64,000 bases of DNA from Candidatus Brockarchaeota archaeon (GTDB lineage Archaea; Thermoproteota; EX4484-205; JAAOZO01): NCBI GenBank assembly GCA_017601145.1, contig JAFNIV010000003.1:8769-72768 (forward strand), written 5' to 3'. Within the stretch, counting starts at the first letter, position 1, and every line of letters begins with the position of its first letter. The notes beneath the pieces are model-generated. The model worked only from the letters and a program-made list of their open reading frames with translations, was not told where the DNA came from and made no database searches. Below are positions 18,414 to 62,937 of the stretch, piece by piece. The position numbers and the translations under genes are program-made.

Positions 18414-18770
18414 ATGAAGAATCCAAAAGCAAAGGGAACAAAGTCGGAGTATAAAGTTAGGAATTTATTCGAAAAAAAGGGGTGGCTCGTTGTCAGGTCG
18501 ACTGGAAGCTTCAGCCCAGTAGATTTAGTTTGCATAAAGAAGAAGAAGATAATACTAGTACAAATAAAGAGCAGCTCAAAAAAGGTGCTCTACCAAAAAG
18601 AAGTTGTACCAAATAGAATAGAGGGCATAAAAACAATTTTGGTAGTTGACTTTGGACGTTATGGCATTAAAGTAACAAAAAGTAAAAAGAAAATAAAAGC
18701 TTCAGAGGGAATTAAGCTAGAGGAATATCTTGAAAAGCTAGAAAGGAAGAATAATGGGCCCGTGGCCTAG
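18414..18770 (+). CDS. hjc: Holliday junction resolvase Hjc-like PD-(D/E)XK protein
   Basis: KGTKSEYKVRNLFEKKGWLVVRSTGS..PVDLVC..ILVQIK parallels Hjc (E..D..ExK) but has Q in place of the last acidic residue. The last 15 nt overlap tRNA-Arg. Confidence 0.55.
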   Translation: MKNPKAKGTKSEYKVRNLFEKKGWLVVRSTGSFSPVDLVCIKKKKIILVQIKSSSKKVLYQKEVVPNRIEGIKTILVVDFGRYGIKVTKSKKKIKASEGIKLEEYLEKLERKNNGPVA

Positions 18771-18831
18771 TATGGATTAAGGCACCAGCCTGCGGAGCTG
18801 GTTATCGTGGGTTCAAATCCCACCGGGCCCG
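18756..18831 (+). tRNA. tRNA-Arg (anticodon GCG), 76 nt, no intron, no encoded CCA
   Basis: Manual cloverleaf: GGGCCCG/CGGGCCC acceptor, GCCT/AGGC D-stem, CCAGC-CTGCGGA-GCTGG anticodon arm, GTGGG-TTCAAAT-CCCAC T-arm. A T-run follows. Confidence 0.9.
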
Positions 18832-18993
18832 CTTTTAATTATTTATTAACTTAAGATTCTAAAAAATAAAGAGTATTCTAACAACATCAATCTTAGCTAG
18901 TAGCCATCTTACAATTGAAACTACATAGTTTTTAATCGAGTATGTTTAAAAAAATTTTTATAGTTTTATAAATTAAAAAACGCTTGAAGAGAC

Positions 18994-21538: not shown

Positions 21539-21614
21539 GGACCCGTGGCCTAGTATGGATTAAGGCACCAGCCTCCGGAGCTGGTTATCGTGGGTTCAAA
21601 TCCCACCGGGTCCG
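21539..21614 (+). tRNA. tRNA-Arg (anticodon CCG), 76 nt, no intron
   Basis: Differs from the 18756 copy at 3 positions only: the G3:C70 to A3:T70 pair and anticodon G34 to C34. Begins 2 nt after the argS stop. Confidence 0.9.
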
Positions 21615-21739
21615 CTTTTTAACTAATTTTTTTTTAACTTCATTATGAAAGTAAAAAATAAAAACGTATTGAGGAAAGTTCTGCTCGTTATCATTCAGTT
21701 AATAATTAGAAACTCTTTTTTTATATGTTAGTCTTCACT

Positions 21740-30034: not shown

Positions 30035-31687
30035 CTATTGCTCGATAAAGAGAATTCCTAAACGCCCATCGCCTCCGACTAATGCAAATTTTCCGTCGGA
30101 ACTTACAGCTAAGCCTCCTTCAGTGGGTCTATAGCAATAATGTTCCTCAATTACCTTATGGTTTGAAACCGAAACTATGCTTACTTTGTCATGGCTTCTT
30201 ACTAATAGAAACCGGCCGTCCGGCGTGATTACCATGCTGTCCATGCCAGCCTCTGAGACATTATAGTTCAGCGTTGCTTCTATTTTGTTTGTCTCCATAT
30301 TCCACCACCAAATGTACCCCCTGGAGGCCCCCATGTCTACTAGCACCAAGGCATGTTTGTTATCGGGCATAAGCTCCATGTCCCAAGGTCCAGAATTGCA
30401 CTTGGTGAAGACAGTGCGTTTAGCGATGGCCTTTGCTGCCAGATCTATTTTCTCAATGAAGCCCCCGGTGAGGGTTTCTCCAGACGCTCCCTTGAATTCT
30501 CCGGTGAAGCAACCAACGTATAGGAAGGCTCCATCAGGAGATACGGCGTACGGGGTAACAGGATTGCTGGTGAGGGTTGCGCGCTCATATACATGGATGT
30601 AGTCGACAACGTGAGCTGAGGGCACATCCAAGACGGATATTACATAATCAATATAGTCGCGAATATGAATTGGATTCAGCAAATCATTGCAAAGGTAGGC
30701 GATGTTGCTATTCGGCGCCACCAAGACATGTTCTGACAAGGGTATAATGTCAGGGATATCATATACGATTTTGCTGACGGCAAACGTGTTTAGATCAAGG
30801 GTATAGCTGTTTCTTGCAGCTGCAATCACAGCATATCTACTGTCATATGTTATTGCAACTCCAGACCTTGCGATGCCTGGCAAAGTAATGTTGGCTATGA
30901 TGTGCGGGGGGTCTGTTAAGGATATGACTGCAACGCTATCTTTTAAACTGTAGGTGACAACGGCCTTAGTGTTATCTGGTGCAACTGCCACATGCGATAT
31001 TTTGTCGCTTACAATTATGGATGTTGTAAACCAGTTAGGAGTATTTGACGCCGTAACGTTTCCCCACTCGTTCACGGCGAACATCCTATAATAGTATTTT
31101 TTTAACGCCTCCAGTGCAACCTCTACTGTGTGCTCTCTAGCATCCGCATCGAACTCTTTTCTATAAACAATCGTGTCACCGAACTGTGGTGTAGTTGCAA
31201 TCTCTAAAATGTATTTGTCGGCATAACGAGATTTTTGCCATCCGAAATATGGCGTTGGTCTTAAGTTGATGCTCTCCGGTTCTATATCAACTACACTGAA
31301 TAGTAAAGGTGGGCCCGGAGTCTTTACACAGATACTGCCGCCAGTTGCGCTGTTGCCACTACCATCTCGCGATATTGGTACGACATAGTAATAGGTGTGG
31401 AAAGCAAGGTCTGTAAGCCTATATGTGTGCTGTAGCGTAAGCGTACTGTTTTCCTGCAAGTGTACGTAATCAGTTTCCTTCTCGCTTCTATACATTACCT
31501 GAGTAGTTGCAGGCTCATCGGTTATCCAAGAAATTATAAATGAGGTGGGAGTTATGTTAGAAACGGTTACGTTCTCAATATTTGGCGGTGTTTTATCCTC
31601 AGAAAGATAATAGAAGCCAGCAATCGCCCCAACTGCAACCAACACAGCTATAATCACTATGGGAACATTTTTCATACCTACATCCAA
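30035..31687 (-). CDS. membrane-anchored surface protein with FN3-like domains and a YVTN/beta-propeller region
   Basis: N-terminal TM (VPIVIIAVLVAVGAIAGFYYL). FN3-like VSNITPTSFIISWITDEPATTQVMY. Repeated ..VSPDG..LYV / ..ITPDGRFLLV / AVSSDGKFALV blades. Alternative ATG at 31675. Confidence 0.65.
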   Translation of the reverse strand: MDVGMKNVPIVIIAVLVAVGAIAGFYYLSEDKTPPNIENVTVSNITPTSFIISWITDEPATTQVMYRSEKETDYVHLQENSTLTLQHTYRLTDLAFHTYYYVVPISRDGSGNSATGGSICVKTPGPPLLFSVVDIEPESINLRPTPYFGWQKSRYADKYILEIATTPQFGDTIVYRKEFDADAREHTVEVALEALKKYYYRMFAVNEWGNVTASNTPNWFTTSIIVSDKISHVAVAPDNTKAVVTYSLKDSVAVISLTDPPHIIANITLPGIARSGVAITYDSRYAVIAAARNSYTLDLNTFAVSKIVYDIPDIIPLSEHVLVAPNSNIAYLCNDLLNPIHIRDYIDYVISVLDVPSAHVVDYIHVYERATLTSNPVTPYAVSPDGAFLYVGCFTGEFKGASGETLTGGFIEKIDLAAKAIAKRTVFTKCNSGPWDMELMPDNKHALVLVDMGASRGYIWWWNMETNKIEATLNYNVSEAGMDSMVITPDGRFLLVRSHDKVSIVSVSNHKVIEEHYCYRPTEGGLAVSSDGKFALVGGDGRLGILFIEQ

Positions 31688-31919: not shown

Positions 31920-32261
31920 TTAATGTACAAAGAATTTAGGGCATGCTTTCGACGCTTTTTCCGCCCATACGCAGTTTTGCGCCACCGAGAGGCTCTCGTT
32001 TTCTGAAGGCTGTTTGTTCTGTGTGCTGTTTATCCACGTCACGATGCGCTCCACGGCCTTCCTCGTTGCGGCCGCGGGGTCAAAGTCCATAGCCCTTAGA
32101 ATTGTTATTAAGTGGCCTGCATATTTGGCCAAGGATGCCTTGGAGAGGCTGAAAGACGCTATATGGTCGAGGAAGGATAACGCCAGTGCACCGTGTTTCA
32201 GCCCCGCAATTACCCTTCTATAACGCCCTATCGCAACGTCAAAGTTGTATATTTCATCCAT
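31920..32261 (-). pseudogene. tyrosine recombinase/integrase, N-terminal SAM-like domain only (catalytic domain missing)
   Basis: LSFLDHIASFSLSKASLAKYAGHLITILRAM..DPAAATRKAVERIVTWI fits the integrase N-terminal core-binding pattern. The ORF stops after 113 aa, with no R..HxxR..Y domain downstream. Confidence 0.5.
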
Positions 32262-32331
32262 TTCTCCATCGGAAATGGATTGTCGCGTAGGCTTAAAAGT
32301 GGGGGGAAGAGAATTGAACCCGAGTTGTAGG

Positions 32332-32450
32332 TGCTCCGGCCGGGACTTTCACCTCCTAAGTTTTGAACCCGGGTATCGAGCTTTCTTCAGCCATTCCTCG
32401 AGAGGCTCGAATGCTTTCGGCCTAGGATAACCGGACTACATCACCGGAGC
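32332..32450 (-). tRNA. tRNA-Glu (anticodon CUC) with three putative introns (D-arm 13 nt, canonical 37/38 16 nt, T-loop 59/60 16 nt)
   Basis: Minus-strand read: GCTCCGG TG ATGT AGTCCGGTTA TC[CTAGGCCGAAAGC]AT T CGAGC CTCTCG[AGGAATGGCTGAAGAA]A GCTCG ATAC CCGGG TTCAAA[ACTTAGGAGGTGAAAG]T CCCGG CCGGAGC A. The spliced product is a 74-nt cloverleaf resembling archaeal tRNA-Glu as I recall it. Confidence 0.75.
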
Positions 32451-43053: not shown

Positions 43054-44316
43054 TTAAACTTCGTAATTTTCGTTGATCTTTGGCATTATAGCTTTAGTGT
43101 CTTTCATGTTATTGTTTATTTCATTAAATAGGAACTCTATGTTTTCTCTGCTTCCATGAACAAAAAACACATACTTTGGATTTGTTTCTTTAATAAGGTT
43201 GATATAATCATTTTTTCCATTGTGAGAAGAAAAGTCAAATTGTTTTACTTCTGCATTAACTTTTACTAGTTTACCACCCATCGCTATAACTCTCTTCTTT
43301 AACAACGTACTTCCAGGTGTTCCTTCAACTTGATAACTTACTAAAAAGATTGCATTTTTTCTCCCTTTAGCGATTTCTTCCGAATATCTGACAGCAGGAC
43401 CTCCCTTCAGCATACCTGCTGGTGTTACTATTATTCCTGGCTCTCGAGTAACGTACCTTCTTTCCTGATCTGATTGTAGAATATAAGTTTTTTCTACGGC
43501 ATTAACAAATTGCTTATAGTCGTAAAGCTCCTTAGGATTATTCATGAATATTTCTGTAATCCTTTTTGCCATACCATCCAAAACAACTTTGTATGGAAAA
43601 TTGTTGGCATGAAGCACTGTAATAATTTCTTGAGCTCTACCAACCCCAAAAGCAGGAACTAGTACTGTACCTCCATCTTCTATTATTTTTCGTGATTCTT
43701 CAACAAACTTCTTTTCTACTTGATCTCTAGGAGGATGTTCTGTCGTTGCATACGTACTTTCTGTAATAAGAACGTCTATATTCTCATTGTAATTTGTATT
43801 TGCAGGTGGAACAGTTCTGGTTTTGTTTACGTTCATATCTCCAGTGTACAACATCACTTTATCTTTAAACTTCAAGAGAATTTGTGAAGCGCCTAATACA
43901 TGACCTGCATCCTTCATTTCCAAGAAAGTATTATCATTAATCTTATACTGCTTATCCTTTTCAATTTCAGTTGAATATTGAATGAATCTATTAATTTCAA
44001 GAGTTTCAAAAGGCAAATAAGTTTTTGAAACTTTTAGCATGTCCAACAATAGGATTCTAGAGAGCTCCTTTGTCATCTTAGTCATCAACGCTTTTTTTAT
44101 TCCTCCTATGAAGAATAAAGGAGCAGAACCGACATGATCTAAATGACAATGAGAAATTATTAGGGTATTGAATTCATCTGGAGATACATAAACTGGAAAC
44201 TTTATCGAATGATCAAGAGCGACGCCACTATCCAATAGAAAGCCTTCTTCTTCAGTTTTAACTAAGATTGCTGACCTTCCAACTTCTTCCACAGCTCCTA
44301 AAAATTTTATTTTCAT
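43054..44316 (-). CDS. beta-CASP metallo-beta-lactamase RNase (aCPSF2-like, no KH domains)
   Basis: HCHLDHVGS motif plus beta-CASP insertion. 420 aa. 4-nt overlap with tgtA. Confidence 0.8.
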   Translation of the reverse strand: MKIKFLGAVEEVGRSAILVKTEEEGFLLDSGVALDHSIKFPVYVSPDEFNTLIISHCHLDHVGSAPLFFIGGIKKALMTKMTKELSRILLLDMLKVSKTYLPFETLEINRFIQYSTEIEKDKQYKINDNTFLEMKDAGHVLGASQILLKFKDKVMLYTGDMNVNKTRTVPPANTNYNENIDVLITESTYATTEHPPRDQVEKKFVEESRKIIEDGGTVLVPAFGVGRAQEIITVLHANNFPYKVVLDGMAKRITEIFMNNPKELYDYKQFVNAVEKTYILQSDQERRYVTREPGIIVTPAGMLKGGPAVRYSEEIAKGRKNAIFLVSYQVEGTPGSTLLKKRVIAMGGKLVKVNAEVKQFDFSSHNGKNDYINLIKETNPKYVFFVHGSRENIEFLFNEINNNMKDTKAIMPKINENYEV

Positions 44317-45854
44317 CCTAAATCAATCTTATTTTTTATTTTTATGCCCTTCTCAAGAGAAAGCTTCTCTATAAACTTTTCGCTTAACAAACAACTACTC
44401 TTATCTCTTATTATAGTTATTTCAACTTCTTTAGACGAAAGCTCACTTACTAAGTGATTTATGACTTCCTCAATTTTTTCCTCAGGAAGAACATCTTCTG
44501 GACTAATTATCTTGTTAAAGGGAGAAGTGTAATAGGCCCAAATTGGAACAAACCCAAAATACTTATTTAGGTAGTATACACACTTTTTGTCTTCGTCAAG
44601 TTTTATATTTTCAATTATTTTTTTTACGATTTCGTTGGAAAGTTTGTCTTCTTCTATGAAAATTAATATCAATCGCTTACATTTTTGCTCAATTTTCCCT
44701 ATTTCTTTTTTTCTTAAGTAAACTATTTCAGGGCGTTCTTTAGACATCTGATCAAACATAAAAATCCCTTTTCTTTTGAAAATAGGAGATTCGTTGAATA
44801 TTTTTGGAGCAAATCGAGCTAATTCTTTAAACGCTGCAAAAGTCTTTGGATGGGACCTAGATCGAATTTCAATTAAATCCCAAAGAGTTCCTTCTTTTAT
44901 TCTTTCCTTTATTTCTCTTATTTCCCTATGAATTGTATAAAGGTTATGTTTTGCCAAAAGTTTTATGCGCTCATTTTTTTCCATTTCTTTTAACTCTTTT
45001 GGAGTATATTTACTGCATATATTGCACTCACATGGAAAATATGAAAGTTCATTTAATTTAAATGTTCCATGAGCAGTTATGTACCGATCCTCATAGGCAT
45101 AAAGTGCATATGAAGCAGAATCGAAGATATCGTAACCTAATGCTACTAAAAAACTAAGTATCATTGGATGACCTGCTCCGAAAAAATGAATTGGAATTCC
45201 GCTAGGTACGTTTGCTTTTGCTATTACACCCATCTTAATTAGTTGTGAGAAATCATACCTTTCCATAAGTTCAACAGGCGATCCTAAAGCTAGAATACTA
45301 AACCCTTTGTTTGACATTTCACGTGCGGAAAGAGATAATAGTTCTTCAAAGACTCCACCTTGTATTGGACCGACCCATAGTATGTCCCTTCTTACAATTT
45401 TTTGGATAGATTTATCTGCGTTCTCTATTGTTTTTTTCACGCTTTCTTTTGCTATTCTATAATCTTTTTTTATACCAGTAGGGATGTCCAGTATAGCGCC
45501 AATATCTACATTTAACTTTTCCTCAACTTCAACTATATCTTCGGGTTCAGCCTTTATTTTGCCGTATCTAAGTATTTGGTAACCCCCAGAATCTGTATAA
45601 ACTATTCCATCAAAGTTTAAGATTTTATGAATATCTTCAATTTCTAGTCCTTTATTTTCATATTCCTTTTTTATTAAGTATGCATTAGTCATTATTCCGC
45701 TTACTTTAAATTCATCTTTTAGCTCATTAATGGTAATAATCAACTTATTTTTATTTATGACAGGGAAGAAGTAAGGTGTTTCCAAAACTCCGCTTTTAGT
45801 ATAAAGTTTGCCTATTCGTCCATTAAGGTCTATGTTTAATATCTCAAAGCTCAT
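44313..45854 (-). CDS. tgtA: archaeosine tRNA-guanine transglycosylase
   Basis: VYTDSGGYQ, GPIQGGVF, GYDIFDSAS, zinc motif CECNIC..AKHNL. 513 aa. Confidence 0.85.
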   Translation of the reverse strand: MSFEILNIDLNGRIGKLYTKSGVLETPYFFPVINKNKLIITINELKDEFKVSGIMTNAYLIKKEYENKGLEIEDIHKILNFDGIVYTDSGGYQILRYGKIKAEPEDIVEVEEKLNVDIGAILDIPTGIKKDYRIAKESVKKTIENADKSIQKIVRRDILWVGPIQGGVFEELLSLSAREMSNKGFSILALGSPVELMERYDFSQLIKMGVIAKANVPSGIPIHFFGAGHPMILSFLVALGYDIFDSASYALYAYEDRYITAHGTFKLNELSYFPCECNICSKYTPKELKEMEKNERIKLLAKHNLYTIHREIREIKERIKEGTLWDLIEIRSRSHPKTFAAFKELARFAPKIFNESPIFKRKGIFMFDQMSKERPEIVYLRKKEIGKIEQKCKRLILIFIEEDKLSNEIVKKIIENIKLDEDKKCVYYLNKYFGFVPIWAYYTSPFNKIISPEDVLPEEKIEEVINHLVSELSSKEVEITIIRDKSSCLLSEKFIEKLSLEKGIKIKNKIDLG

Positions 45855-55576: not shown

Positions 55577-56218
55577 GTGAAACATTTCTTTATGATAAAG
55601 AAAGAAATTATCAATGTTTTCGACAAAATCTCAAAAGAATACAAAAGATTAAGGAAGGAAAATGATTGCGTTAAGCGAATTTCAAAATGGAAAAAATATG
55701 AATTAGCTCTTGATGAAGGATGCGGCCCAGGGACTAATTTTCCAGCAATAATAGAAAATGTAAAATTTTACATTGCTTTGGATATTTCTTTAGGCATGAT
55801 TAGAGAAACTAAAGAAGAGATAAAAACGGCGAAATGGAAAGTAGATTTGATAGTAGCTGATGCTACCTTCTTACCCTTTAAGGATGAAGTATTTGATCTT
55901 TTGGTAGCAATAGCGGTTTTCCATCATTTGCCGAAAGACAACTTAAGAATAGCATTAGGAGAAGTAGAAAGAGTCCTAAATAGGTCTGGAATAACGATTT
56001 TTACTTTTTGGAACTTAAAAGTTATAAAAGAAAGTAAGATTCTCGAAAGAAAAGAAAATTTATTCTATGTAGCTTGGAAATCATTGAACAAAGAAATCTT
56101 GAAACGGCCCTACTTTAACTATACGCTAAAAGAAATAAGCGAAATAGTTAGAGAAAAGTTCATTTTTTTCGACATTTTTGTTTCATGGAACATAGTATGC
56201 TTTGGAATGAAAGAATAA
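55577..56218 (+). CDS. class I SAM-dependent methyltransferase
   Basis: Motif I ALDEGCGPGTN and post-I/II DLIVADATFLPF. ATG at 55592 is the alternative start. Confidence 0.7.
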   Translation: MKHFFMIKKEIINVFDKISKEYKRLRKENDCVKRISKWKKYELALDEGCGPGTNFPAIIENVKFYIALDISLGMIRETKEEIKTAKWKVDLIVADATFLPFKDEVFDLLVAIAVFHHLPKDNLRIALGEVERVLNRSGITIFTFWNLKVIKESKILERKENLFYVAWKSLNKEILKRPYFNYTLKEISEIVREKFIFFDIFVSWNIVCFGMKE

Positions 56219-56635
56219 AAGATACTTTTTGCATAAATTACACTGAAAAGAAAGCTACAAGAATTACTAAAGGAATAATTAATTTTCTTTTCAACAGTTT
56301 TCAGATCAGTTCTAAATTAACACTAAAAATACTCATGAATTAGTTTATTTCTCATACCAGAAGTAGTGCTCCAAGGAACTTTCCGAAGGCTCCAGTACTG
56401 AAAGAAACCTCGCGCTCTCCTACACTTAAAGTTTATACCACAAAAAGCTCGACCGAAATCTTCCCTGTATGTAGGTTTTCCTTAGATCAACAGTTTTCGT
56501 ATTTAATCGTTGAATCGTTATCAAGAATATAGCGCAGCTCTGATAAGTAGTAGATAAATTTTAAAAAAGTAGCTTTAACAGTGCTTCATCTATTAAGCAA
56601 AAAATTTTTTATTCGATTACTTTAGAATAGCTTTC

Positions 56636-57754
56636 ATGTTCTTTAAAGAAGATTGGATTGAGGCTAAGGAGCGGTTCTCAGCCTGGTGGGAGAAAGATGT
56701 TTTAGACAGACCACTTATACAAGTTCTTGCTCCTCGAAGCAGCCCAAAGTATGCTTCAGAAGGTGATTTAAAGTTCAACTATGATCACTGGGGTTTTCCA
56801 AAAGCAATTAATGATCCTGCTGCTGTAAGCAGAAACATAAAGGGTTTTCGGAAGCAGTGCGCAGAAATATACTATGGGGGAGAAGCCTATCCTAACCTTT
56901 GGGTGAACCTTGGCGCCGGTGTCCTCGGGGCGTACTTGGGTGCAGAACCAGTTCTGGAGAGCGAAACGGTATGGTTCGGAGCGCAAAGGAATAATTCTCT
57001 TGGGAAAAGCTGGAAGGAGCTGCGCCAATTAGAGTTTGATCCAAATAATGAATGGTGGATGTTTACGAAGAGGATAACTGAAGAAGCTTCTGAAACTCTA
57101 GCGGGATATAGCATTGTTGGTATGACTGATTTAGGGGGAATACTGGACGTTGTTGCGTCGCTGCGAGGTGCTGAAAACCTTGTTGTCGACCTCGTTAGGA
57201 ATCCTCAGGATGTTAAATCCTTGTCCTCGAAAATTATAGATTACTGGCACATATGCTACGATGAGTTAGACAGGATTATAAGAAGGAGAATAGAGGGCAC
57301 TTCCGCTTGGATGGGCATATGGTGCCCTGAAAAATGGTACCCAATACAGTGCGACTTTGCCTTCATGCTTTCTCCGAAGCTTTTTGATGAGTTTGTGCTT
57401 CCTCATGTTAAAGAGCAATGTGAAAGACTTGATCGGACAATATACCACCTCGATGGCCCTGGGGAAATACCACATTTAGATTCACTGCTTAAAGTTGAGA
57501 GGCTAGACGGCATCCAATGGGTACCGGGTGCAGGAGAAGAGCTTAAGGGAAACGACTGCGGTTCGCTAAAATGGATACCTCTTTACAAGAAGATCTTAGA
57601 AGCCAGGAAGCTTCTCGTACTATACATGCCTAAAGAAAAGGTAATTCCGATGCTTAAGGCGCTTGGCTCTAAGAAAGTATTAATTCAGACTTTCTGTACC
57701 AGCGAAGCAGAAGCTAAAAAGCTAGTTGTTGAGGCTGAAAACTTGTTTCGTTGA
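56636..57754 (+). CDS. uroporphyrinogen decarboxylase (URO-D)/MtaA-like superfamily protein
   Basis: 372 aa. N-terminal ERFSAWWEKDVLDRPLI and the later HLDGPGEIPHLDSLL..LDGIQWVPGAG pattern recall URO-D-like TIM barrels. Memory only. Confidence 0.4.
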   Translation: MFFKEDWIEAKERFSAWWEKDVLDRPLIQVLAPRSSPKYASEGDLKFNYDHWGFPKAINDPAAVSRNIKGFRKQCAEIYYGGEAYPNLWVNLGAGVLGAYLGAEPVLESETVWFGAQRNNSLGKSWKELRQLEFDPNNEWWMFTKRITEEASETLAGYSIVGMTDLGGILDVVASLRGAENLVVDLVRNPQDVKSLSSKIIDYWHICYDELDRIIRRRIEGTSAWMGIWCPEKWYPIQCDFAFMLSPKLFDEFVLPHVKEQCERLDRTIYHLDGPGEIPHLDSLLKVERLDGIQWVPGAGEELKGNDCGSLKWIPLYKKILEARKLLVLYMPKEKVIPMLKALGSKKVLIQTFCTSEAEAKKLVVEAENLFR

Positions 57755-57761
57755 GTTTAGG

Positions 57762-57955
57762 CGTTAAAAGCTTCTGGGCGACTATGAAGGCAGTCTTGTT
57801 CTTAACGAGCCCCCTCAGCGATTCGTATATTTCCCTCTTCGTTTCAGCATCGACCTTGAAATCAAATCATTTGGAATCAGTATTGATGGGTTACAAGGAG
57901 ATTCTCAGTTTTTCTAGGCTATCCTTCATAATACTGAGTTCGAGCTTATCAATTT
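57762..57955 (-). pseudogene. ABC ATPase remnant (signature/Walker B/H-loop region, frameshifted)
   Basis: 57762-57863 reads DFKVDAETKREIYESLRGLVKNKTAFIVAQKLLT (D-loop to H-loop pattern). Upstream pieces PSILIPNDLIS and LSIMKDSLEKLRISL lie in other frames. Confidence 0.35.
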
Positions 57956-58105
57956 AGCCTCTAATAGATATATAGCCCATAATCCATTTGCTGAACTGCT
58001 CTTCTTACCTAAGTTTGGAGCCTTATTCCAGCTTTTGGACATCTATCTGCATTTGAGCAACTCGCTCAGATTATATAAATTCAAACCTCTATTTATGCTT
58101 ATGAC

Positions 58106-58141
58106 AATTCATACAGAGTTAAAGCCATAGGCTTTCTTGCC
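58106..58141 (+). repeat. hairpin-containing repeat, copy B (AATTCAT..AGTTAAAGCCATAGGCTTTCTTGCC)
   Basis: See copy A. Here the stem is a perfect AAAGCC-ATA-GGCTTT. Confidence 0.6.
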
Positions 58142-58212
58142 GAATCCCACGCGATGATAATGCAAATGACTTTTAAGATTGTTTTCAGTATGCATAAAAA
58201 ATTTATTATACT

Positions 58213-59026
58213 CTAACCAATAACACTATTGTTTGAGGCCCAATTTGGAGTGCCAACGCTCTTAATTTTTCCATGCAGTAAAAGGGAGAATAAATTATCG
58301 TCATGTCTCTGTTTTAAAACATAAACATGTTGTGTAAATCCTTCACAACTCCCAGTCCAAGGCAGAATAGGGATTATTTCAGATGATCCATCCTCGTAAT
58401 CTACTTTAACTCCGGCGGAGAACACTTCCCACCTCGGATACAGGCGGATTACTGTAAAAGCATTCGTGTAGTCGAAGTACCGTTGAAGCAAGGTAGGTGA
58501 AGGTTACTCCTCTAAACACTATTTTCGTACCATTTTCTAGCATGTTCGTCGTTACCAGTAAGTATCTGAATTTTATGCCTTCCACAGTGACAAAACCTTC
58601 TGAAAGATCTAGGTTTTCGTAGAGTGGTATTTGTCTGGATACGACCTGGTAGAGCTCTAGGATTATCGTGGCCGAAAGCAGAACAACGATTAAAGCTAAG
58701 CTTAGAATCTTAAGTATCTTGTTCTTCCAAAACCCTACTGGTTTTGTCATGCTCATCTGTTCTACGAGCTGTGCAAACCGTAAAACTTCTCTCGCATCAT
58801 CACTCAACACATACCTTCCATAAGCGTCTTGCTTAACCATGCTACCCAGCCTCTCTAGGTGATACTGTAGATGACCGCTGCTCTCCATTTCAAGAGTCCT
58901 TTTAAGCTCAGAGAAACCCATAGGTCCCTGTTGAAGCATTTTCAATATTCTTATTCTTACAGGATGCGCAAGAGTGTCAAATAGTTCAGCTCTTCTCATA
59001 GAATCATCCTTTTCAGTACCTTCCAT
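58213..59026 (-). pseudogene. ArsR-type wHTH + TM + extracytoplasmic domain protein, apparently split by one frameshift near 58490
   Basis: LAHPVRIRILKMLQQGPMGFSELKRTL..SSGHLQYHLERL wHTH, then TM ILSLALIVVLLSATIILEL. The second ORF (58213-58491) continues the beta-rich domain in the +1 frame with an 86-nt overlap. Confidence 0.5.
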
Positions 59027-59746
59027 CGATTCTAGTATATCTCTTGTAACAATTTAAGTTTTTTTAAGTCTATAAGTCTAGACAAGCAGAATGTATTATA
59101 CTAAATTTCTAGATCTAATGAAGAATTATATATTGCATTTTAAACATTCTATTTTGATGCAAGGAACTTTTTTCAAAATCTAATTTTGATAATTTAAAGA
59201 AAAAAGCCTATCACTCTTCTTGCCACTGTTACTGCTTAATCTTCAACCTTCTGAGAAACTGATGGAGATCTCTCCATATTACTGCCTTGGATAGTTTAGT
59301 TAGAGGCGGAATAGTAGTTAACAATCTTTTACCTTTCGGAGCTAAAAAATCCGAGATTTTTGGGAAGAAAAACTTCGTTGCTAAAGACAGAATGGATTGG
59401 AGAAAACCAAATTATCATTTTGATGTCTGAGTTAAGAAATATTTCGATGCCTTGAATTTTGGTACAATAAATCTATGTCGAAAATTTTAGAATAACTAAT
59501 ACACTAAATAACACTAATTTGTTGATTCATTAAGTTAGTGCCTTGGGAGTGACTTTCACCACTGGAGAAAAATTCTCCAATGGGTTTTAAACTCATTCTG
59601 TCTTCTAATTCCAGTATCAAGCAAGTTTTTAAGGTATCACATACAACGCTTTTGCAGAACGTTATCTTTCTACTTGGCTACGGCCCAAAAATTTTATCTG
59701 GTTATTACAGCATTCTTACTTTAAAAAAATCAAACGATGGAGGTTA

Positions 59747-59821
59747 TGCGGCGCCCGGGATTTGAACCCGGGATTACCAGCTTGGAAGGCTGGTGTCCTA
59801 ACCAGGCTAGACCAGCGCCGC
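59747..59821 (-). tRNA. tRNA-Gly (anticodon UCC), 75 nt, no intron
   Basis: GCGGCGC/GCGCCGC acceptor, CCAGC-CTTCCAA-GCTGG anticodon arm, CCGGG-TTCAAAT-CCCGG T-arm. Confidence 0.9.
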
Positions 59822-59856
59822 CGTCTCCTTAATAGAGATGGTGGTTAATAAAAGTT

Positions 59857-60771
59857 TTAGTCCTCCTCTTTAAGCTCATCTATAGTTTTTATCAGTTGAA
59901 GCTTCTCTATGTGCTCCGGCTTCCTAGAGCCTATTTCCTCTATGAATTTCAGGTGGTCCTCTGCAGGAATAGTAAAACTATGTAGATCGCGCCATCCTGG
60001 TTTCCTGTGGTCTGTGCGGATCTCGTGAGGATGAAATCCTAAGTCTATGAACATCTGTCTCACTTCTTCCAGTCCCTCCTTGTATGTTGAGTAGATGCGA
60101 ATATTATGAGCGCGTCCTCCTTCCGTCATGGAGATATTTCCGTCGCCAGAGAAGAAACCCCTTAAGTATGCTCTTTTCCCCTCTTCGTCTAAATGGTCCA
60201 CAGGCGGATGAAACTCAAAGTCCTCTGGTCCCTTAATGCCCAGATCTGCTAAATCGTAAGCTATCTTCTTGCTGTATATCCTTGGCTTATGATATGCTTT
60301 CTCCCCTTCTCCCGTTTCTTCAAAACGAATGTAATCGCGAGCAGTTTCGTGATAGACTTCTCCAATTAAGTTAATGAAAAGTTCAGCGAGTTCCCTATCC
60401 TCACTATCGAAATAAACCTCATATATGCCTTTCTCACTATTAATGTAAATTCCACCGTCAGAAGCTATTAGACCACATAACTCTGCTTTTTCTGGAGCAA
60501 GTATTTCTCTAACTTTTCTCTCTAAAATTTCCAAGCTCATTCCTTTACTAAGCTTGAAAATGATCCTGCCTTCTTCAACCTTGGCTTCAGAAAAGATTCC
60601 GATAACTTCACTGCCTTTAAGCAGTTCATATCCGCCGCCCTCGGCTTCACGAACCTCATATTTCTCAAAAGTCCTTAAGACATGAAAAGACTCTTCTTCT
60701 CTCTCCCCTCGTACTTGTTCTCCCTCATAAAACCTTCTTTCATACTGCTTAACCCTAGAACCCCCGCCCAT
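59857..60771 (-). CDS. free-standing double-motif LAGLIDADG endonuclease-like protein with ~95 aa N-terminal extension
   Basis: Motifs LCGLIASDGGIY and YLRGFFSGDGNIS about 110 aa apart. The ATG directly abuts the stop of the upstream gene. Confidence 0.75.
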   Translation of the reverse strand: MGGGSRVKQYERRFYEGEQVRGEREEESFHVLRTFEKYEVREAEGGGYELLKGSEVIGIFSEAKVEEGRIIFKLSKGMSLEILERKVREILAPEKAELCGLIASDGGIYINSEKGIYEVYFDSEDRELAELFINLIGEVYHETARDYIRFEETGEGEKAYHKPRIYSKKIAYDLADLGIKGPEDFEFHPPVDHLDEEGKRAYLRGFFSGDGNISMTEGGRAHNIRIYSTYKEGLEEVRQMFIDLGFHPHEIRTDHRKPGWRDLHSFTIPAEDHLKFIEEIGSRKPEHIEKLQLIKTIDELKEED

Positions 60772-61869
60772 TTATCTTCCTCTCTTTAAAGCTTCATTCA
60801 TGTCGAGCAGATTGTGGAGAGCAAGTGTCTTGAGACCCAGCTCCTTATCGCTTAGCATCAGGTCGATCAATTCCTGCGGCATCATCCCTCCACATGCTTC
60901 ACAAGTGCACTCCTCAAATCTGATTTCTGGATCTTTGAAGCTGTGCAATTTTCCTCCTTTAAAGTAGTGTCCTTGTTTAGCCTCTAGGAACCAGGAGAGG
61001 TTGCTGTAGCTATTTATCTCCTTATGCCTAAGCCTGTGGCCAACGCCATAGATCAGCAACTCAAGATCCCTTCTTGTCCTTTTCGAGACCCGTCGAAGGC
61101 TCATAATGGCCCCAGGTAAAAGGTCTTCGAGCAGGTTATCCTCCAACAGTTCCCTCGCGGGCATAGCGAACGAAACGTAGCCCATCTCAACCTGCTTCTT
61201 GATGGCCCAGTCGATTTGAAGGTGGTTAGCGCCCTTAACCATGCCTATCAATGGAATATCTAGCTTGAGGAAGTCATTCGCAAAGGAAATAAGTTTAACC
61301 GTCTGAGACCAAGATAGAAAAAGCGGGTCATCGACATATGTGTAGTTGTCAGGTATTATCGTAGCGTCAGGTCTAAGGTCGTTAATCAGCTTGAAGTAAT
61401 CCTCTAGCCTAAGCTTATCGATAAGCTCATCAGGCATAACCATAGACAGGAAAATCCTTCCGTTAAACCCTAAGAAGTCATGCAGGCCTTTTGAGGAGAC
61501 TTCTGCAAGGAGGGTTTCGTTAACCAGTAGTTGCCAAAGAGGAACAAATATTTCTGGCAATTCTACTCCATGCCTCCAGAACCACGACTTTTTATCACTG
61601 ATATCGATTTGAGGAATGAATCTTTCAAAACCGATTTTGGCCATAGACTTTTCGCTTAATGAAGACATTTGCACAGAGGGTCTATTTGCTGTTTTAATCG
61701 GGCAATAAGGCCTGAGCCTGCAGAAGGACTTGGGATAGGTTATTCCAGTATATTGGAAACCCCTCTGGCATTGTGCTACGAGGCACATTTTAAAGGAGCA
61801 GCCGCGGCAGAGCTTATGAAAATACGGGCATCCCTTGCAATCAAAGCCGCACCATCCTTTTCTAGGCAT
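60772..61869 (-). CDS. TGT (tRNA-guanine transglycosylase)-fold paralogue with Cys-rich N-terminal extension
   Basis: Block-wise similarity to tgtA of this window (LHDFLGFNGRIF, PLIGMVKGAN, LLIYGVGH, CTCEAC..ALHNL). 9 Cys in the first 56 aa, incl. CGFDCKGC. Confidence 0.65.
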   Translation of the reverse strand: MPRKGWCGFDCKGCPYFHKLCRGCSFKMCLVAQCQRGFQYTGITYPKSFCRLRPYCPIKTANRPSVQMSSLSEKSMAKIGFERFIPQIDISDKKSWFWRHGVELPEIFVPLWQLLVNETLLAEVSSKGLHDFLGFNGRIFLSMVMPDELIDKLRLEDYFKLINDLRPDATIIPDNYTYVDDPLFLSWSQTVKLISFANDFLKLDIPLIGMVKGANHLQIDWAIKKQVEMGYVSFAMPARELLEDNLLEDLLPGAIMSLRRVSKRTRRDLELLIYGVGHRLRHKEINSYSNLSWFLEAKQGHYFKGGKLHSFKDPEIRFEECTCEACGGMMPQELIDLMLSDKELGLKTLALHNLLDMNEALKRGR

Positions 61870-61980
61870 ACTACTTTAAAAATCGAGCTAGAATAAAAAC
61901 TCTTTTCTTATGTACTCCAGAATAATTGTAGCATCAGTATCGGAGCATATAAATAGGTCTTACTCGAATAGAATTGGTGA

Positions 61981-62676
61981 ATGAACACAAGGGAAGGGGA
62001 GGGAAGGGAGCAAGGTGTTACTGTCTGGTATTGGGGTGAGGAATTCAAGGATGTGGGAAGGAATTGTGAGAAGTATGTTAGCAAAAGGTGGAGTGAAAGC
62101 GTTAAAGAATGCGGCGTTTGGATTCTGGCAAGAGAGAGAAAGGAGGGGATTATCTATACTGTCACCGCATTTGTAAGCAGTCCTAAGGGTATTGATAATC
62201 TGGCTCAACACCTATTCGACGTGACACTCCTTCAGGGAAGTACCAAAGTGGATTTCGTTGTGGTTCAATTGACTGATTCCGTCTCCTCGGCCAGCATGCA
62301 GTATCGGGATCCGATGGAAAAAGTGGAAAGCGAACTAGAGGAACTGATGAAAAAAATCGCTGAGAAGTTTGGCGAGGATCCTAGGGTTAGGGAAGCTATG
62401 AAAGGTAAAAAGGTAGTATTCATTCCAGAGATCTGTCTACTTTGCGAATTGGAATCCCATCGTGCCAGCAAGATACTTATCGAAGTTGTTCATCACTTTT
62501 TCTCGAATATAAAGGAGTTTCTAGATTCTTTAACCAATAATTTGATAAAGGAAGGTCTGGCAGAACGGGTCTTGGGCTATAAGTTAAATGTAAGCGTTGA
62601 CGATCTTGAGATCGAGGACGTGGAAGCTTGGAAGGATGAGGTTCACGTCTGGCTAAGTATAAGAATAAACTACTAA
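61981..62676 (+). CDS. hypothetical protein (231 aa), divergent from the TGT-like gene
   Basis: Island-like codon usage. No family recognised. Start uncertain. Confidence 0.4.
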   Translation: MNTREGEGREQGVTVWYWGEEFKDVGRNCEKYVSKRWSESVKECGVWILARERKEGIIYTVTAFVSSPKGIDNLAQHLFDVTLLQGSTKVDFVVVQLTDSVSSASMQYRDPMEKVESELEELMKKIAEKFGEDPRVREAMKGKKVVFIPEICLLCELESHRASKILIEVVHHFFSNIKEFLDSLTNNLIKEGLAERVLGYKLNVSVDDLEIEDVEAWKDEVHVWLSIRINY

Positions 62677-62805
62677 AAACAATCTTCAATAAACTTCAAG
62701 ACATCAAGTAGATAATTCTTCAACGAAAAAAATATAAGGTGACTCAGCTATAAACTTGTATGAAGTACAACGTCAATTTAGTCAAGTTGGGGGCTTCAAG
62801 TTTCC

Positions 62806-62937
62806 ATGAAATACGATGAAGAGAGCGAGCAATCACTAGCTCAAAATCCATATGTGAATATAAAGTCAATAGAAGCTACACTTGTTGCGCTCACTTTTTG
62901 TTTAGTTATAGTTAGTTTTACAGAGAAATTACGATGA
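62806..62937 (+). CDS. 43 aa tail-anchored membrane protein (below ORF-track cutoff)
   Basis: MKYDEESEQSLAQNPYVNIKSIEATLVALTFCLVIVSFTEKLR. Its TGA overlaps the Rpp21 ATG (ATGA). Sec61-beta-like layout, but not demonstrable. Confidence 0.3.
   Translation: MKYDEESEQSLAQNPYVNIKSIEATLVALTFCLVIVSFTEKLR

Follow-up and report, generated by a model that had tools for sequence, protein, structure and literature searches.

A three-gene cassette joining a TGT-fold protein to a LAGLIDADG endonuclease recurs beside tRNA genes in Brockarchaeota

The DNA analysed here, a stretch of 64,000 nt from a Candidatus Brockarchaeota archaeon (hereafter the window), contains a pair of genes on the reverse strand (59857–61869) which a first-pass annotation, made from the letters alone, had described as a tRNA-guanine transglycosylase (TGT)-like gene coupled to a gene for a free-standing LAGLIDADG endonuclease. 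The first gene of the pair (60772–61869, −) encodes 365 amino acids (aa) and combines a Cys-rich N-terminus, a TIM barrel and a C-terminal zinc subdomain, and the second (59857–60771, −) encodes the 304-aa LAGLIDADG protein. Reading the sequence again gave the same positions for the two open reading frames (ORFs) and the same close coupling. At the junction (...GAGAGGAAGATAAATGGGC) the TAA of the TGT-like gene (60774–60772) abuts the ATG of the LAGLIDADG gene (60771–60769), with a purine-rich stretch upstream, and in the fuller read, GAGAGGAAGATAAATGG, the stop and start codons adjoin behind that stretch. A third gene, c1 (61981–62676, +; 231 aa), taken from gene-cluster maps, diverges from the TGT-like gene across an intergenic region of 111 nt (61870–61980), which is presumed to be a bidirectional promoter from A/T-rich TATA-like boxes read by eye. 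A functional tRNA-Gly(TCC) gene (59747–59821, −; 66.6 bits with the Rfam tRNA model, also called by ARAGORN) lies on the same strand, 35 nt beyond the end of the LAGLIDADG gene, and inside a horizontally shared block (59744–62654), which was delimited by blastn against the loci L001–L003 (such labels denote the compared loci) and by protein identities of cassette versus flanks. The cassette has a GC content of 0.44, compared with 0.355 for the window on average, and the window is otherwise ordinary chromosome, with genes for a thermosome, RadA, a class II aminoacyl-tRNA synthetase (aaRS) and a P-type ATPase. Comparison of the cassette loci collected in a genome scan (n = 55) establishes with high confidence that the three genes make up a conserved, multi-copy and horizontally transferred mobile cassette of ~2.8 kb.

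At the level of the fold, the TGT-like protein belongs to the TGT superfamily, with a (beta/alpha)8 barrel and a zinc subdomain in its predicted structure. Foldseek with the AlphaFold (AF2) model (pLDDT 83.8, poor for residues 1–60 only) gave the archaeal enzyme arcTGT as the best PDB match (1iq8, E = 5e-14, TMq 0.64) and bacterial TGT as the next, and viral TGT/DpdA-like models fitted less well than arcTGT (best E = 2e-7, TMq 0.53). Sequence models barely detect the protein: PF01702 reaches 18.3 bits (cut-off 26.3) through the C-terminal zinc motif only, TIGR00432 (11.1 against 350) and TIGR00449 (12.6 against 47.6) stay below their curated cut-offs, and neither the DpdA model NF041059 nor the ArcS model NF040592 gave a match. 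The family profile aligns with 1iq8 across the whole barrel (E = 1e-7), and hhalign against the arcTGT encoded in the window agrees. These profile alignments reproduce the alignment that had been made by eye. A search for kinship with DpdA through PDB sequences was negative, as neither the window profile nor that of a distant relative matched DpdA. The arcTGT used for comparison is genuine, as had been annotated (44313–45854, −; TIGR00432 488 bits, cut-off 350); its gene overlaps by 4 nt the downstream gene for a beta-CASP/aCPSF1-like ribonuclease (43054–44316), and the two may form an RNA-processing operon (43054–45854, −).

TGT and DpdA have three invariant Asp residues in common, and in DpdA mutation of either catalytic Asp abolishes guanine exchange (PMC10164549). 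In the profile alignments of the TGT-like protein, LSMVM stands opposite TDSGG of arcTGT and the general acid/base Asp95 (Asp95 in Ph and Sm, Asp102 in Zm) is replaced by the invariant Ser142. The nucleophile Asp249 of the (Y/L)FDS segment (Ph numbering; Asp256 in Sm DpdA) falls at the variable position 289 (Ser, Ala or Ile; Ser289 in the window), and residues 275–300 hold no invariant acidic residue in the alignment of homologues. The first-pass annotation had read the segments TDSGG and YDIFDS as replaced, and in this it was right, but it missed the third residue, the base-recognition Asp130, which is kept as the invariant D174 of a PDNYTY motif. The zinc ligands of arcTGT are likewise matched by C321/C323/C326/H352 (CxCxxC...H), which are invariant. 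With both catalytic Asp replaced and D174 and the zinc ligands retained, the protein has kept the TGT fold together with its zinc site and base pocket, but not the canonical chemistry. The nine N-terminal Cys counted at first (residues 7, 11, 14, 21, 24, 29, 34, 50 and 56) are all invariant in 22 diverse homologues, and the domain that they mark, which is possibly metal- or Fe-S-binding, has no Pfam match even at E ≤ 10; a radical-SAM or DUF3795-like identity, considered for its CX3CX2C spacing, was set aside on this result, the AF2 model being poor there. About 65 residues are invariant across the 22 homologues (43–73% identity), and an invariant cluster (S142/D147/E148, D174/T177/Y178, K212/G213, P237/R239/E240, Y274/G275 and S292/W293) lies at the C-terminal ends of the barrel strands, which argues that the gene is under selection and not dead. 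The protein stops after the zinc subdomain: the alignment ends at residue ~318 of the 582 residues of 1iq8, by which the C-terminal tRNA-binding domains (C1–C3, PUA) are absent.

The 304-aa partner carries two LAGLIDADG motifs in one chain, as first described, and matches Pfam LAGLIDADG_3 (E = 1.8e-16). Its residues ~99–279 align with the entire I-DmoI (PDB profile match, E = 9e-10), SDG falling on D21 and GDG on E117 of that enzyme. The catalytic acidic residues are preserved: among 22 paralogues D105 (Glu in 2 of them) and G209-D210-G211 are conserved, and an active nuclease is plausible from the conservation of D105 and D210. A conserved N-terminal domain of ~95 aa precedes this core and has no Pfam match. 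The gene stands free, begins with a start codon of its own and has no Hint or intron context. An intein or a split gene was therefore rejected as a description of the TGT-like and LAGLIDADG ORFs, since the stop and the start are real, Hint blocks are lacking and the gene boundary is conserved. The third gene, c1, was found in at least 35 loci; in most of them it lies directly downstream of the LAGLIDADG gene on the same strand, and in the window and its orthologues it is divergent. Its product (~220–230 aa) evolves fast, with only W16, W37, G199 and Y200 invariant in the alignment. The AF2 model (pLDDT 89.6) consists of alpha/beta units, Foldseek against the PDB gave at best E = 0.04 with TM < 0.2, and the PDB profile search gave no match. 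Recombinase was considered as an identity for c1 and rejected, as comparisons by family, PDB sequence and fold were all negative and no set of catalytic residues is conserved.

Close homologues of the TGT-like protein number 131; every one is annotated as hypothetical and comes from a metagenome-assembled genome (MAG) of Brockarchaeota or other 'Thermoproteota'. The distribution is restricted to one archaeal lineage, with up to 6–8 diverged paralogues per MAG in the genome scan. No relatives were found among 2.9 million viral contigs and no PHROG matches the protein, on which grounds a viral origin was rejected. Of the 44 loci in which the sequence continues past the TGT-like gene, 41 have a LAGLIDADG homologue directly behind it, the stop/start coupling is conserved among loci, and the identities of the two proteins co-vary (TGT-like/LAGLIDADG ~89/92, 75/60, 62/45 and 45/30%); a relative at 36% identity still retains the pair plus a third gene. 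Clustering of the neighbouring ORFs revealed no other gene besides the LAGLIDADG gene and c1 that recurs beside the TGT-like gene. About 15 cassette copies are fragmented. This bears on the alternative offered at first, that a selfish homing endonuclease gene (HEG) merely happens to be inserted next to a TGT-like gene which is unrelated to it and possibly inactive. The LAGLIDADG gene is indeed free-standing and the TGT-like protein is without its catalytic Asp pair, but a pair that is conserved and co-diverging in 41 of 44 loci and persists down to 36% identity, with the stop/start coupling kept and ~65 residues of the TGT-like protein held invariant by selection, refutes a chance association, to which we give hardly any credence. 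The claim of a two-gene module on foreign DNA holds in so far as there is a conserved unit on mobile, GC-deviant DNA, but it missed the third gene, the link to tRNA genes and the mobility of the unit itself. The pairing had been thought undescribed, and our literature searches indeed found no description of the three-gene module and, in the library searched, no paper combining 'LAGLIDADG' and 'tRNA-guanine transglycosylase'. Several loci depart from the common arrangement. Diverged TGT-like genes (43–46% identity) in L041 (1657–2820) and L039 (2854–3567) are without a following LAGLIDADG gene, an unrelated ORF of 387 aa taking its place in L041, and in L038 (11423–13841) the LAGLIDADG gene is split by an insertion of ~2.4 kb with two ORFs (200 and 392 aa). 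In addition, two cassettes of different lineages lie 5–9 kb apart on one contig in L021 (2443–5193 and 9998–12700) and in L018 (35–1472 and 9980–11316).

In distant relatives of the TGT-like protein the partner, whether separate or fused, is another phosphoesterase, namely an HD protein or a calcineurin-like domain. In L060 (600–7200; also in L061) a relative of 32% identity, which retains the Cys-rich N-terminus, forms an operon with an HD-domain protein and a terpene-cyclase-like protein, with a thymidylate-synthase-like gene close by and no tRNAs in the vicinity, and in L051–L055 and L015 (7840–9594) relatives are fused to a calcineurin-like phosphoesterase. These pairs and fusions may represent a wider family of base-recognition and phosphoesterase systems, and they suggest that the partnership of base recognition with strand cleavage is general and that tRNA targeting is specific to the LAGLIDADG cassette. 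They are also relevant to the possibility of a defence module of the restriction-modification (R-M) type, in which the TGT-fold protein would modify or mark guanines in DNA and the LAGLIDADG protein would cut unmodified DNA, the module itself being mobile. I-DmoI-type enzymes recognise long, rare sites rather than short motifs, and this speaks against such a module. So does the occurrence of 6–8 diverged copies per genome, each at a different tRNA locus, which is unlike any defence system. In favour of it are the coupling of a TGT fold and a nuclease in one operon, the retained base-recognition Asp and zinc site, and the lack of tRNA-binding domains, as in DpdA; moreover, the distant relatives, with their HD or calcineurin-like partners and, in one case, the adjacent thymidylate-synthase-like gene, match the PADLOC 'TGT' profile (lowest E = 1.5e-11), and insertion accompanied by long target duplications is known for R-M units (PMC2853133). 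For the window proteins, however, PADLOC-DB v2 gave weak matches only (TGT E = 0.058, not significant; HEase E = 4.8e-4), the DpdA and ArcS models did not match, and the clustered ORFs of the cassette neighbourhoods include no DpdB or preQ0 genes. Both Asp required for transglycosylation are missing as well, and a base exchange of the DpdA kind, which the first-pass annotation had put forward, is not supported, because the two absent residues are among the three that are invariant in TGT and DpdA, and in DpdA the loss of either one abolishes exchange (PMC10164549). On balance, we regard an R-M-like module as unlikely.

The cassettes are associated with tRNA genes. In ~30 of 50 loci a tRNA gene or a T-arm fragment is no more than 250 nt away from a cassette end, the background density being 0.061 tRNA per kb, and the tRNAs concerned are those for Gly, Leu (four isoacceptors), Met, Glu (two), Thr, Ala (two) and Arg. 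In at least 8 loci c1 and a tRNA gene converge, with 1–10 nt between the stop codon of c1 and the 3' end of the tRNA. Direct repeats of the 3' part of the tRNA bracket only the three genes; they measure 61–68 nt in L006 (96–98% identity), 59 nt in L008 (100%), 37 nt in L020, 27 nt in L025 and 23 nt each in L031 and L032, the repeats or target duplications spanning ~23–71 nt overall, and T-arm motifs occur at both cassette ends in nine loci. In L008 an identical tRNA core is followed by ~30 nt of diverged similarity over the 3' end of c1, which gives an attL/attR-like architecture, and cassettes in the opposite orientation carry the same identical core. At the tRNA-Glu(CTC) site, which has a HerA-like gene and the thermosome side as its flanks, the cassette of L013 is inverted relative to those of L037 and L044 with collinear flanks, and the orthologous site of the window itself is cassette-free. 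In L001 and L002 a repeat of ~65–70 nt, which consists of the 3' end of the LAGLIDADG gene and contains no tRNA sequence, flanks c1-TGT-LAGLIDADG on both sides. The metagenomic locus L057 has the same flanks and a single repeat, that is, an empty-type site, and we read it as a recombinant between direct repeats because the second copy is present in L001–L003 and L057 has one; the alternative of counting L056–L058 as separate deletion scars was dropped for the same reason. Four contigs of 2.82–2.85 kb, from four independent samples and assemblers, correspond exactly to the cassette and end inside the tRNA repeat, with terminal overlaps of 17 and 25 nt, a picture that a circle and an assembly loop on the repeat would give alike.

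Repeats that run from inside a tRNA gene to its 3' end are the att layout of integrases in tRNA genes (PMC2853133), and none of the three genes between the repeats has a family or fold match to an integrase or recombinase. Accordingly, the cassettes could be integrase-less islets mobilised in trans by tyrosine integrases, the three genes being cargo whose function has nothing to do with mobility, for example an addiction or a tRNA-related function. At least ten different tRNA targets would, however, need as many matching integrases, and in one locus after another nothing but these three genes stands between the repeats. The cassette is found in either orientation at one site, the Gly-type repeat is the 3' end of the LAGLIDADG gene and no tRNA sequence, and the conserved site-specific nuclease is itself an obvious candidate for mobility. 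We therefore consider mobilisation in trans improbable, somewhat more so than the R-M-like module.

Several of the tRNA genes concerned have features of their own. The window holds two tRNA-Arg genes 2.8 kb apart (18756–18832 and 21539–21615, +; anticodons GCG and CCG), which share 97% identity across 74 nt; cassettes reside at tRNA-Arg(CCG) in L020, L021 and L065, and the window has none there. Beside the orthologous cassettes of L020 and L021, the tRNA-Arg(CCG) gene of L020 (9833–9926) has an insert of ~17 nt upstream of the anticodon stem compared with that of L021 (9845–9921), and introns are also present in the cassette-adjacent tRNAs Ala-GGC, Thr-TGT and Glu-TTC. The tRNA-Glu(CTC)-like gene of the window (~32310–32450, −), which is the cassette-free orthologue of the insertion site in L013 and L037, is detected by neither ARAGORN nor Rfam. 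Relative to intron-less orthologues it has three inserts, one of ~12 nt in the region of the D-loop, one of ~18 nt behind the anticodon and one of 16 nt within the T-loop; the acceptor and T stems are preserved in its fold, which contains additional hairpins (z = −1.7), and it may be a multi-intron tRNA. Directly 3' of it, the GC-rich segment 29400–32300 (0.445) with a gene for an fn3-domain protein (30035–31687, −) and small ORFs without a family match may be a different island at the same tRNA-Glu; the ORF 31920–32261 was considered as an N-terminal fragment of an integrase and found no Pfam support.

Horizontal transfer is apparent from the comparison of the window with L001–L003. The cassette proteins are 86–94% identical and a DNA block of ~2.9 kb is 88–93% identical, while RadA (69%), the aaRS (52%) and RNase P component 4 (35–38%) in the flanks are far less similar, and blastn found no alignable similarity between the flanking DNA of the window and that of L001–L003. 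Furthermore, one tight cassette clade has a single member per genome and sits at different tRNAs in different genomes. This incongruence of cassette and flank identities is difficult to reconcile with a host paralogue family acting in tRNA biology (modification, processing or quality control), each copy standing beside the tRNA gene that it serves. The fold is that of the tRNA-modifying TGT enzymes, the paralogues are old (30–75% identity), syntenic across species and linked to tRNA genes, and LAGLIDADG proteins can act as RNA maturases, all of which would suit such a family. Inversion and loss at the same site, frequent fragmentation, the lack of a PUA or other tRNA-binding domain, the retained catalytic residues of the nuclease and the restriction to one archaeal lineage all point the other way, and we hold a host family to be very improbable.

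The copy in the window is intact but rearranged, with c1 divergent and the functional tRNA-Gly gene, inside the transferred block, facing the LAGLIDADG gene with its 5' end. A decayed tRNA-Gly-like remnant with an intron-like insert (~62765–62858, +), assigned with low confidence from homology to L007 (8855–8933), is inverted relative to the functional gene and lies just upstream of the gene for RNase P component 4, the position and orientation held by the native tRNA-Gly in L001–L003, L057 and L058. The homologous fragment of L007 reaches 33.7 bits with the Rfam tRNA model (positions 7–64), and the remnant taken alone was not significant as a tRNA in the window search. Because the remnant seems to occupy the native position, the cassette-borne tRNA-Gly may have replaced the native one. 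On the other side, ~3.1–3.4 kb separate a methyltransferase gene (55577–56218) from the 3' end of tRNA-Gly; this segment (56300–59746, GC 0.39) holds a URO-D-like ORF (56636–57754), an ArsR/DUF7347 helix-turn-helix (HTH) protein (58406–59026) and ~720 nt of non-coding DNA, and the close relative L007 has only ~450 nt in its place. It may be a further insertion at the 3' end of tRNA-Gly, and no repeat was found there.

Considering these results together, we take it as the most likely reading, at roughly even odds (a probability of about 0.5), that the element is a selfish cassette which inserts at or beside tRNA genes, spreads among Brockarchaeota-type archaea and moves by means of its nuclease. 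The nuclease is proposed as the driver because it is conserved and predicted to be site-specific, and no recombinase is present, so that it is the only evident mobility enzyme. It would cut both strands at a specific site, either in the target or in the copy of that segment which the cassette, for instance an excised one, carries itself, after which recombination by the host RadA would insert or excise the cassette through the short shared segment, by Campbell-type or 'ends-in' integration. Such break-stimulated integration would duplicate the shared segment, that is, it would be an insertion with long target duplication that matches the observed repeats, and recombination between the repeats would yield the single-repeat product of the L057 type. 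There is a precedent in bacterial R-M units, which are inserted 'with long target duplication' and lack any further genes for mobility (Furuta et al. 2010, PMC2853133). Any target of up to 60 nt would persist in one repeat copy, so some self-protection would be needed; classical homing with target disruption was for this reason judged unlikely. The TGT-fold protein might, speculatively, be a base-flipping recognition, licensing or protection partner acting on the target nucleic acid, which is probably DNA because the PUA and other tRNA-binding C-terminal domains are lacking and a Cys-rich N-terminal domain is present; our confidence in this particular role is low. The c1 protein could be an accessory factor.

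A number of points weigh against this proposal of a nuclease-driven selfish cassette. The activity of the nuclease is a prediction and its target site is presumed, and immunity by simple target disruption fails to account for self-protection when a target of up to 60 nt survives insertion. Perfect att-like cores would be expected from a tyrosine integrase acting in trans as well, ~20 loci have no adjacent tRNA, and the copy in the window is rearranged, with its divergent c1, the 5' end of the tRNA facing the LAGLIDADG gene and the second tRNA inverted and decayed. Moreover, the 2.8-kb contigs may be loops in the assembly graph and not circles, some of the frameshifts may be MAG assembly errors, and the long-term conservation of all three proteins, together with syntenic paralogues across species, would also fit a function of benefit to the host.

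If the cassette moves by its own nuclease, this would be site-specific integration into tRNA genes that needs neither integrase nor transposase, and it would extend the biology of homing endonucleases in archaea beyond introns and inteins. A bolder and more doubtful possibility is an integrase-free, protein-programmed integration, in which the TGT-fold protein, without its transglycosylase chemistry but still with a base-binding pocket, flips, reads or hydrolytically removes a particular base of the tRNA gene, or binds the tRNA, and so directs or licenses the I-DmoI-like nuclease, the two inserting and excising the element together with c1 at selected tRNA loci. Were this true, the cassette would be a new class of archaeal mobile element and would bring a new function for the TGT fold, and the pairing with interchangeable phosphoesterases (LAGLIDADG, HD and calcineurin-like) would amount to a general two-step scheme of base recognition followed by strand cleavage. 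The TGT-like proteins form a new branch of the superfamily, which has retained the barrel fold with its zinc site and base pocket, has dropped the catalytic Asp pair and has gained a Cys-rich domain; recognition by base flipping, or some new chemistry on nucleic acids, is conceivable for it. The diverged I-DmoI-like nucleases act with partner proteins and seem to be bound, each of them, to another long sequence at a tRNA locus, which makes them a natural panel of retargeted meganucleases. Finally, archaeal tRNA genes have long been seen as battlegrounds for mobile elements, an idea on which it bears that several host tRNAs contain introns and that one native copy appears decayed beside a cassette-borne copy.

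Among known systems, the cassette is akin to free-standing homing-endonuclease cassettes and to nuclease units that insert with long target duplication. With the I-DmoI-type monomeric LAGLIDADG homing endonucleases it shares the double-motif single-chain core and the conserved catalytic acidic residues, and, as with free-standing HEGs, the gene behaves as part of a selfish unit which spreads horizontally and has conserved genes as its targets. Its nuclease differs in lying outside any intron or intein, in the additional N-terminal domain of ~95 aa and in always being accompanied by two partner genes, and, whereas a HEG insertion splits its recognition site, insertion of the cassette duplicates 23–71 nt, so that classical immunity by target disruption is inapplicable. 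The TGT-like protein shares with arcTGT/TgtA (1iq8; PF01702, TIGR00432) the TIM-barrel fold, the CxCxxC...H zinc subdomain and the base-recognition Asp (Asp130 of Ph, here D174). It differs in its marginal sequence similarity, in the change of Asp95 to Ser142 and of Asp249 to a variable Ser, Ala or Ile, in lacking the C-terminal tRNA-binding/PUA domains, in the extra N-terminal domain with 9 invariant Cys and in being encoded on a mobile cassette with a nuclease. ArcS can be set apart in the same manner, as there is neither a match to NF040592 nor a PUA or C-terminal domain. The resemblance to DpdA/TgtA5 (7UI4; PMC10164549) lies in a TGT catalytic domain that stands alone without tRNA-binding domains, in the carriage on mobile or island DNA and in the association with DNA-cleaving functions; in DpdA, however, all three invariant Asp are present and the enzyme depends on the DpdB ATPase and on a supply of preQ0, whereas the TGT-like protein has lost two of the Asp, has no DpdB or dpd cluster and no match to NF041059, and is partnered by a LAGLIDADG nuclease of the I-DmoI type. 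Islands that integrate into tRNA genes by tyrosine integrases show the same repeats from inside the tRNA to its 3' end, with the complete tRNA at one end and a copy of its 3' part at the opposite end, and the same occupied and empty states, but the cassette has no integrase or recombinase, comprises only ~2.8 kb and three genes, occurs in both orientations at one site and has in one lineage a repeat that is not tRNA sequence. The R-M units of Furuta et al. (2010, PMC2853133) are likewise nuclease-bearing selfish units with long, variable direct target duplications and without transposase or integrase; they are bacterial and carry a methyltransferase, whereas the cassette is archaeal, is linked to tRNA genes and carries a TGT-fold protein without known modification chemistry.

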